From: Alphaproteobacteria bacterium
Lineage (GTDB): Bacteria; Pseudomonadota; Alphaproteobacteria; CALKHQ01
DNA: 64,000 bases
Assembly: GCA_965227515.1 (NCBI GenBank)
Contig: CBDDFZ010000001.1
Span: forward strand, 64,001 to 128,000
Direction: 5' to 3'
The notes beneath the pieces were generated by a model, which was not told where the DNA came from, did no database searches, and was given only the letters and a program-made list of their open reading frames with translations. Positions within the stretch are counted from its first letter, which is position 1, and each line of letters begins with the position of its first letter. The translations under genes and the position numbers were made by a program. This document shows positions 20,956 through 22,279 of this stretch, piece after piece.

Positions 20956-21074
20956 CGCGCTGTATAGCAAAACCGGCCCGAAGGCCGAATCGTCTTGTCA
21001 GAACAAGAGCTTGTGCGAGCTGAGTCGCGCTAACGCGCGAACATTCAAGTCGGCACCGGCCCTTGTATCTCATT

Positions 21075-21237
21075 TTGTGGCCGCTGCGGTTATTGTAGCG
21101 GTGGCGGAGACGGGTGGGAGGCCGCAAGGCCCTTGGTCTCGAAGACCGTGGGAGAGCTTGGCACCCTGCCTGTTGTTCCAATGAACCCGAACAGTCGCTT
21201 GGTCCGCCGGGCGAGACCGCATTTGCAAGGACGGGTG
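21075..21237 (+). ncRNA. Putative bridge RNA of the first IS110 (ends approximate)
   Basis: 5' hairpin 21081-21101; target guides GGCCCT (21128-33) and GGGAGAG (21150-56); donor guides ACAGTCGCTT (21191-200) and TGCAAG (21224-29). Confidence 0.75.
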
Positions 21238-22170
21238 ATGGAACAGGTTTTCGTTGGCATTGATGTCTCGAAGGCGCGGCTCGACGTGCATGTCTTGCCG
21301 TCCGGCCAGAGCTTTGCTGTCGCACGAGACGGCGATGCTCTGGCAAGTCTTGTCGAGGACCTGGCCGGGCTGTCGCCGGGCCTGATCGTGCTGGAGGCGA
21401 CTGGCGGCTACGAGGTCACGGTGGCAGCGGCGCTGGCCACTGCCGGACTGCCGCTGGCCGTGGTCAACCCGCGCCAGATCCGGGACTTCGCGCGTGCCCT
21501 TGGCCTGCTTGCCAAGACCGATGCGCTAGATGCCAAGGCGATCGCGCTGTTTGCCGAGCGGGTCCGGCCCGAACCTCGGCCGCTGGCCGACGCCCAGACC
21601 CAGGTGCTCAGCGAGCTGATCGCCCGCCGGCGCCAGATCGTCGTCATGATGACCGCCGAGCGCAATCGCCGCAGCCAGCTCACCAGCCGACGCATGGTCA
21701 AGAGCGTCGACCGCCTGCTGGCGGCCCTGCAGAAAGAACTCTCCGCCCTCGAACGCGAGCTCGATGAGACGATCCGCGGCACACCAGCTTGGCGCGAGGA
21801 CGAAGACCTGCTCAAGAGCGTGCCTGGTGTCGGCGATATCACCGCCCGTGCGCTGATCGCCGACCTACCCGAACTCGGACGTCTCGACCGAAAGAAGATC
21901 GCTGCCCTCGTCGGCCTGGCGCCGTTCAACAGGGACAGCGGTACCATGCGCGGCAAGCGCACCATCCGTGGGGGACGGCGTCATCTGCGCACAACCCTCT
22001 ACATGGCAGCCTTGGTCGCCAGCCAACGGAACCCGATCCTCAAGGCCTTCTATCAACGCCTGCTCCATGCCGGAAAGCCAAAGAAGCTCGCGCTCGTCGC
22101 CGTCATGCGCAAGCTCCTCGTCATCCTCAATGCCATCATCAGAGATCGGACCCCATGGCAAAACGCTTGA
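21238..22170 (+). CDS. IS110 family DEDD recombinase/transposase (310 aa)
   Basis: GIDVSK, LEATGGY, KTDALDA, SVPGVG, RDSG (catalytic Ser). Confidence 0.95.
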
Positions 22171-22279
22171 CACAAAAGACAGTCGCTCTCCCCCACCCGG
22201 CCACCCACGACAGTATCCTGAATGGGTGGCCGGGTGGGGGAGAGGGCTGGCGCAGACTTCAGCGTTCGCCGATGCAGCT

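Follow-up and report, generated by a model that had tools for sequence, protein, structure and literature searches.

An IS110-group insertion sequence in a REP-like palindrome and a predicted bridge RNA whose guides match the repeat family

What interrupts a palindromic repeat at one place in an alphaproteobacterial genome, and what directs the interruption to that position? In the 64,000-nucleotide stretch of DNA analysed here (the window), the same 22 bases (cattcaagtcggcaccggccct) lie at 21042-21063 and at 13597-13618. At 13619 they run straight into a long palindrome, whereas at 21064 the repeat is interrupted and picks up again only at 22188 (ctcccccacccggccaccc...), with a CT at both junctions (21062-21063 and 22186-22187). 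The initial annotation, made from the sequence alone, had read this as an IS110 insertion within a palindrome family, and its 22-bp identity, its point of resumption and its two CT dinucleotides are all correctly placed. The 22-bp match is not a chance similarity. It is the outer part of a family with 296 occurrences of the palindrome arm core and 124 complete palindromes in the 5.52-Mb, two-contig genome, the palindromes having loops of 16-18 nt (71 distinct loops). As a dispersed, short, imperfect palindrome, the target repeat qualifies as a REP. Regarding a RAYT, the genome has two PF01797 (Y1 transposase) matches, neither with the target repeat within 1.5 kb.

The interrupted copy is distributed over both sides of the insertion. 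The left flank (21042-21063, + strand) is the outer part of a REP arm and ends in the left target GGCC and the core CT, and the rest of the palindrome follows at 22188-22265 (+), comprising the right target CTCCC, a hairpin with a 21-bp stem (counting the terminal CT of the element) and a 17-nt loop, and the outer right arm. The uninterrupted member of the family at 13597-13690 (+) had been taken as an empty site in the same window. It is an empty family member, but both arms of its palindrome (13611-13682) carry CT-CACCC, a variant with 67 occurrences in the genome and with one mismatch to the guide described below, instead of the CT-CTCCC of the occupied site. The interrupted repeat lies between a gene for a class A penicillin-binding protein (Transgly and Transpeptidase domains; 18742-20970, - strand) and one for a VTT/DedA-domain membrane protein (22280-23023, - strand). 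The inserted element is on the strand opposite to both, upstream of the long Arg/Thr-rich predicted N-terminus of the penicillin-binding protein.

The interrupting DNA is an IS110-family element of 1124 bp, including the right-hand CT (21064-22187, +). Four full copies, 99-100% identical and found on both contigs, have the same ends: each reads ...RGCC-CT, followed by the element from TGTATCTC to ACAGTCG-CT and then by CTCCCCCACCCGGCCACCC..., at one and the same repeat position in 4/4 cases. The left flanks terminate in GGCCCT or AGCCCT (arm type GGCC hit twice and AGCC twice), and the right flank is CT-CTCCC at all four occupied sites. Other boundaries or unrelated targets in further copies had been named beforehand as the outcome that would speak against the initial annotation; since boundaries and target are the same in all copies, this check leaves its reading standing. 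Thirteen positions vary among the four copies and divide them into two subtypes. The reading frame is intact in all four, and 8 of the 10 coding differences fall at third codon positions. There are also two remnants at the same repeat position. In L005 (contig 1, 3870892-3870941), the left end is kept only in its first 50 bases, which are identical to the full copies, stand behind the same repeat flank and are followed by a deletion reaching the outer right arm of the repeat. L006 (contig 1, 1500199-1500287) retains 89 bases of a left end that is 82% identical; judging from its sequence, this variant points to an older, related lineage that used the same target. The element was not found in three other genomes of its own taxonomic family (E up to 1e-60). 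Two more distant IS110-like genes exist on contig 1 near 1351065-1351398 and 1792751-1793084 (L007-L010); their DNA identity is 71-79% over short stretches, and they match neither the left-end nor the right-end patterns of the clade.

We then investigated the coding part of the element. The gene at 21238-22170 (+), from ATG to stop, encodes a recombinase of 310 aa with both Pfam domains of the family (PF01548, 3.2e-22; PF02371, 4.7e-22), and scores 230.6 bits against the curated NCBIfam equivalog model NF033542, 'IS110 family RNA-guided transposase' (cut-off 140). It aligns over its full length with the recombinases of ISCro4 (9.9e-40; PDB 9t56, the best solved homologue) and IS621 (4.5e-37), and its GID, E, DxxD and SG motifs fall in register with theirs, so the IS110 identity proposed at first is borne out. 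In the N-terminal RuvC-like DEDD domain, D9, E53, D95 and D98 align to D11, E60, D102 and D105 of IS621, and in the C-terminal Tnp domain S234-G235 align to S241-G242. These IS621 residues are the ones named as catalytic in the structural report (PMC11208158). Identity to the IS621 protein, counted on the alignment, is about one third. The element (in its four copies) has no terminal inverted repeats, only ACA and TGT being inverted, and its left end of 174 nt against a right end of 17 nt is the layout of the IS110 group.

The left end (21064-21237, +) is non-coding and, on the evidence of its fold and of covariation, encodes a predicted bridge RNA. Together with the first codons it folds at -83.1 kcal/mol (z -3.59), and none of 200 shuffles was as good. 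The predicted fold consists of a 5' hairpin followed by two stems that both contain a large internal loop and carry a top stem-loop. In a consensus structure from 22 distinct left ends of relatives, 14 of the 25 pairs are retained through changes on both sides, mostly in the basal stem of the first module, and AGC and CAAGG are invariant in the alignment. The 5' stem-loop (element positions 11-45) is predicted at 21074-21108 (+). The target-binding module, assigned from fold and covariation, occupies 21109-21174 (+) with a basal stem, an internal loop and a top stem-loop at 21135-21147; within it, the polymorphisms among the copies at element positions 52 and 108 turn G-U into G-C and keep the predicted target-loop stem. 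The donor-binding module extends over 21175-21244 (+), and its basal stem GUUCCA/UGGAAC covers the start codon. No bridge-RNA family came up when 20500-22800 was scanned against Rfam at E up to 1; miRNA-like matches on the REP hairpin were dismissed as chance. Opposite the bridge RNA, on the - strand at 21104-21244, the same scan returned a weak match to the Xanthomonadaceae sRNA sX15 that stays far short of the gathering score (26.4 bits, E 0.1).

Four guides can be read from these two loops. The paired part of the left target guide, GGCCCU (21128-21133, +; element positions 65-70), has the sense of the target top strand and would thus pair with the bottom strand, matching GGCC-CT fully or AGCC-CT through one G:T. 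Only 6 of the 9 nt at this guide position pair with real targets, and because the three 5' nucleotides stay unpaired, the recognised site is 11 bp, RGCC-CT-CTCCC. The right target guide GGGAGAG (21150-21156, +; element positions 87-93) is complementary to CT-CTCCC. In the second loop, the left donor guide ACAGUCGCU (21191-21199, +; element positions 128-136) has the same sense as the right terminus of the element plus core, ACAGTCG-CT, which lies at 22179-22187 (+) and is identical in the four copies. The right donor guide AUUUGCAAG (21221-21229, +; element positions 158-166) pairs with CT-TGTAT discontinuously, with two U skipped and one G:T. Both right guides are followed by a handshake base: C at 21157 (C94), complementary to donor position 7 (G), and G at 21230 (G167), complementary to target position 7 (C).

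The genome contains 181 uninterrupted perfect 11-mers ([AG]GCCCTCTCCC), and 166 of them stand in the canonical arm context. Among the remaining 15, 11 belong to a sub-family with an arm insert of about 38 nt, and only two lack a repeat-family left flank (contig 1, + strand, 2091963; contig 2, - strand, 1204433), so that about 98% of the perfect 11-bp targets lie within the repeat family. Base composition predicts about 23 perfect sites, to be set beside the two outside the family, a crude estimate that may mean nothing. The REP sub-family itself has 14 sites, among them those on contig 1 near 422027 (+) and 2750555 (-); the insert (...CCATGCGGTCGCGCATCCGCGCTC...) separates CTCTCCC from CACCCGGCC in its arm, and the perfect 11-bp target is kept. 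We considered the insert as another mobile element and rejected this; it marks a sub-family of the repeat.

Is the agreement between guides and flanks a general property of these elements? A scan of one genome per species gave 79 loci with proteins 43-77% identical, mostly in Alphaproteobacteria and Dehalococcoidia assemblies. Together with the four own copies these make 83 loci, of which 44 were parsed: simple patterns located the right end and the guides for left donor and right target in these, and the 39 loci that the patterns did not resolve were excluded. Pairing at the core, like the agreement of the left donor guide with the right end, was presupposed by the search and was not counted as evidence; the left-donor match is not independent evidence in the relatives because it was used for finding their right ends. 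The right target guide pairs at 7/7 flank positions in 43 of the 44 insertions (34 by Watson-Crick pairs only, nine with one wobble), the exception being L089 with 5/7. When counted by element type, 22 of 23 pair at 5/5 non-core positions, against a mean of 2.4/5 for non-cognate pairs (n = 466; seven at 5/5), and a count of 22 was reached by none of 10,000 shuffles of flanks among types. The near-identical loci L039 and L040 are a case in point: their guides are CCGAUAG and CCUGUAG, and their flanks change accordingly, CTATTGG and CTACAGG. The match of the left target guide likewise falls at one fixed position of the loop, immediately 5' of the top stem, and its exact run averages 4.35 for cognate and 3.03 for non-cognate combinations (17 types); again 0 of 10,000 shuffles were as good.

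We then investigated the junction that would arise on excision. The joined ends read ...ACAGTCG-CT-TGTATCTC... and bring TTGACA (22167-22172, +), which overlaps the stop codon, exactly 17 nt from TATCTC (21066-21071, +). Joining the ends thus reproduces both the donor ACAGTCG-CT-TGTAT and the box spacing that had been proposed initially. Judged by sequence, a promoter is reconstituted at the circle junction and conserved in the relatives: of 23 distinct junctions reconstructed, 19 have a -35 box (at least 5/6) at a distance of exactly 17 nt from the -10 position. The -10 boxes of these junctions are weak, and the one here is no exception (3/6 to consensus, position 6 not being T). Within the integrated copy, a search for sigma-70-like promoters found none, which fits the published model in which the RNA comes mainly from the circle; as reported, excision in that model depends on weak read-through transcription (PMC13626964). 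The joined 14-mer of the circle junction has no match in the assembly. The 24 public runs listed for the stretch all consist of contigs, with none recorded as RNA, and in the four that were aligned no backward joint of a circle was seen, contigs being unable to show rare circles or RNA ends. Metagenome joints skipping 1124-1125 bases were considered as excision events and rejected. They have only 20 bases on the shorter side and read as paralogous empty repeats, so they are no evidence of excision. In one public run a contig spans the left junction, and the insertion is therefore present there too.

The element is very probably an IS110-group insertion sequence working as a bridge-RNA-guided recombinase system. 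We observed its anatomy, one target common to all copies, the homology of its recombinase, the predicted RNA structure and the guide-target covariation in relatives; the circle, transcription from its junction, the chemistry and the dependence on RNA are inferred from IS621. By this analogy, TTGACA of the right end and TATCTC of the left end would make a promoter in the excised circle, which would transcribe the left end into an RNA of about 165 nt. Of its two internal loops, the first would read the target RGCC-CT-CTCCC, GGCCCU pairing with its bottom strand and GGGAGAG with its top strand, and the second would pair with the joined ends of the element, ACAGTCG-CT-TGTAT. A tetramer of the 310-aa DEDD/Ser recombinase would then swap strands at the CT core. 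Strand exchange at this core would leave the element at the base of one arm of a REP-like palindrome with a CT on each side.

Every insertion lies within a palindrome, and it might accordingly be the hairpin formed by the repeat DNA, and not RNA pairing, that determines the target, all the more as a preprint reports that a target stem-loop adds specificity for ISPpu10. Location is uninformative on this point because about 98% of the perfect 11-mers lie within the repeat family anyway. What tells against a choice by structure is that the guide covaries with the flank in relatives whose targets lie in different repeats, and we regard this alternative as unlikely. A further alternative, which we hold to be still less probable, is that the right-hand REP hairpin belongs to the mobile unit, either carried by the insertion sequence or spread by gene conversion or flexible-boundary excision. 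It draws on the copies c3 (contig 2) and c4 (contig 1), whose left flanks differ and which have in common a 17-nt loop absent elsewhere among the 124 palindromes; moreover, two preprints of 2026 report half-match recombination and IS110 boundaries that are flexible. Yet c1 and c2 have different loops, each of which also occurs at empty sites, every copy has the same repeat running on in its left flank, 181 uninterrupted perfect sites exist, and the boundaries do not vary between copies and agree exactly with the guides. The two copies with the common loop (L003 and L004; right flanks at contig 2 1184151-1184220 and on contig 1 just left of 3321402) form subtype B. Their shared loop may reflect gene conversion from within the element, flexible boundaries or a co-mobilised hairpin.

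The guide-target match could also be the fossil of a decayed or domesticated, immobile relic. The weak -10 box and the two truncated remnants would suit a relic, as would the presence of only four copies beside 181 perfect empty targets, a ratio from which activity may in any case be low. A relic is nonetheless hard to reconcile with four reading frames intact out of four, with coding differences concentrated at third codon positions (8/10), with two target-loop stem polymorphisms that both preserve pairing, and with a full set of catalytic residues. We consider it improbable, to about the same degree as a mobile hairpin, and retain the bridge-RNA-guided recombinase as the preferred reading.

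How does this system compare with those already described? According to the reports on IS621 of Escherichia coli (PMC11208160, PMC11208158), that element likewise has a DEDD and Ser recombinase, aligned here over its full length, a CT core, a junction promoter, REP targets and a left-end bridge RNA with the target loop before the donor loop. The strand sense of the four guides and the handshake bases are also described there as they are found here (PMC11208160, PMC11208158). The right donor TGTAT is likewise read by a discontinuous AUUUGCAAG with a G:T: in the reported IS621 structure, A157-U158 and C162-G165 form the right donor guide, U159-U160 are flipped out, and G161 pairs with dT12 (PMC11208158). 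One G:T at the fourth position of the left target guide, present at half of the natural sites here, is reported for IS621 too. The donor ACAGTCG-CT-TGTAT differs from the reported IS621 donor (ACAGTATCTTGTAT; PMC13396178) at 2 of 14 positions, having CG instead of AT at positions 6-7, and the IS621 donor given in the initial annotation is indeed the donor oligonucleotide of that paper.

In other respects the two systems are set apart. The element is smaller, with 310 aa and 1124 bp here against an IS621 recombinase of 326 residues (PMC11208158), and a left end of 174 nt against 191 bp (PMC11208160). The target RGCC-CT-CTCCC is unrelated to ATCAGGC-CT-AC, the natural IS621 target being reported as ATCAGGCCTAC (PMC11208160). 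The paired length of the left target guide is 6 nt here and 9 in IS621, and the right target guide naturally has 7 nt, in contrast to the 4 of IS621, which were engineered to 7. The view that this is an IS621-like element programmed for a different repeat family is upheld: the guides match RGCC-CT-CTCCC, and the protein is about one third identical to that of IS621. The likeness to ISCro4 (PDB 9t56) comes from protein comparison alone. As described for Pseudomonas putida, ISPpu9 and ISPpu10 are IS110 elements with all copies in one REP family, as here. ISPpu10 is reported to have a stem-loop 5' of the target that pairs with the left target, whereas here the target is in the 5' arm with the partner arm about 60 nt downstream, a distinction drawn from the description and not from sequence. 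The IS1111 group has the same recombinase family; there the RNA is encoded in a long right end, and sub-terminal inverted repeats of 7-17 bp are present (PMC11208160). With a right end of 17 nt and only ACA/TGT inverted, the element falls outside that group, and in its sequence it has all the features that define the IS110 group.

We also found that the start codon of the recombinase is part of the predicted RNA. The donor-loop basal stem (GUUCCA/UGGAAC) takes its 3' strand from the AUG and the four nucleotides after it, and AAGGA, comprising the 3' end of the right donor guide and the handshake base, lies 6 nt before the AUG, at the position of a ribosome-binding site. In L064 and L085 the pairing of the start-codon stem is shifted but maintained. 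The stem beats 95% of shuffles in only 6 of 15 distinct sequences, and we therefore treat it as a hypothesis. Tentatively, the bridge RNA and the recombinase message might be mutually exclusive readings of one transcript in this subclade, a possibility that we rate below even. If so, RNA folding or recombinase binding would shut off translation, a built-in autoregulation. The literature searched held no description of such a coupling between RNA folding and translation, and the main text of Durrant 2024 (PMC11208160) has no mention of a start codon or ribosome site.

A bridge RNA, a CT core, a junction promoter and insertion in REPs have already been published for IS110 elements, and the current understanding of the IS110 family is unchanged by this element. 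What it contributes is a natural bridge recombinase of compact size (1124 bp, 310 aa) with four guides that are readable directly from the genome. Its guide geometry, with a natural right guide of 7 nt and an effective left guide of 6 nt, resembles the extension of the right guide that was engineered in IS621 with the aim of better specificity. For the element, with nearly all of its perfect 11-bp targets inside one family, the repeat family is a safe harbour.
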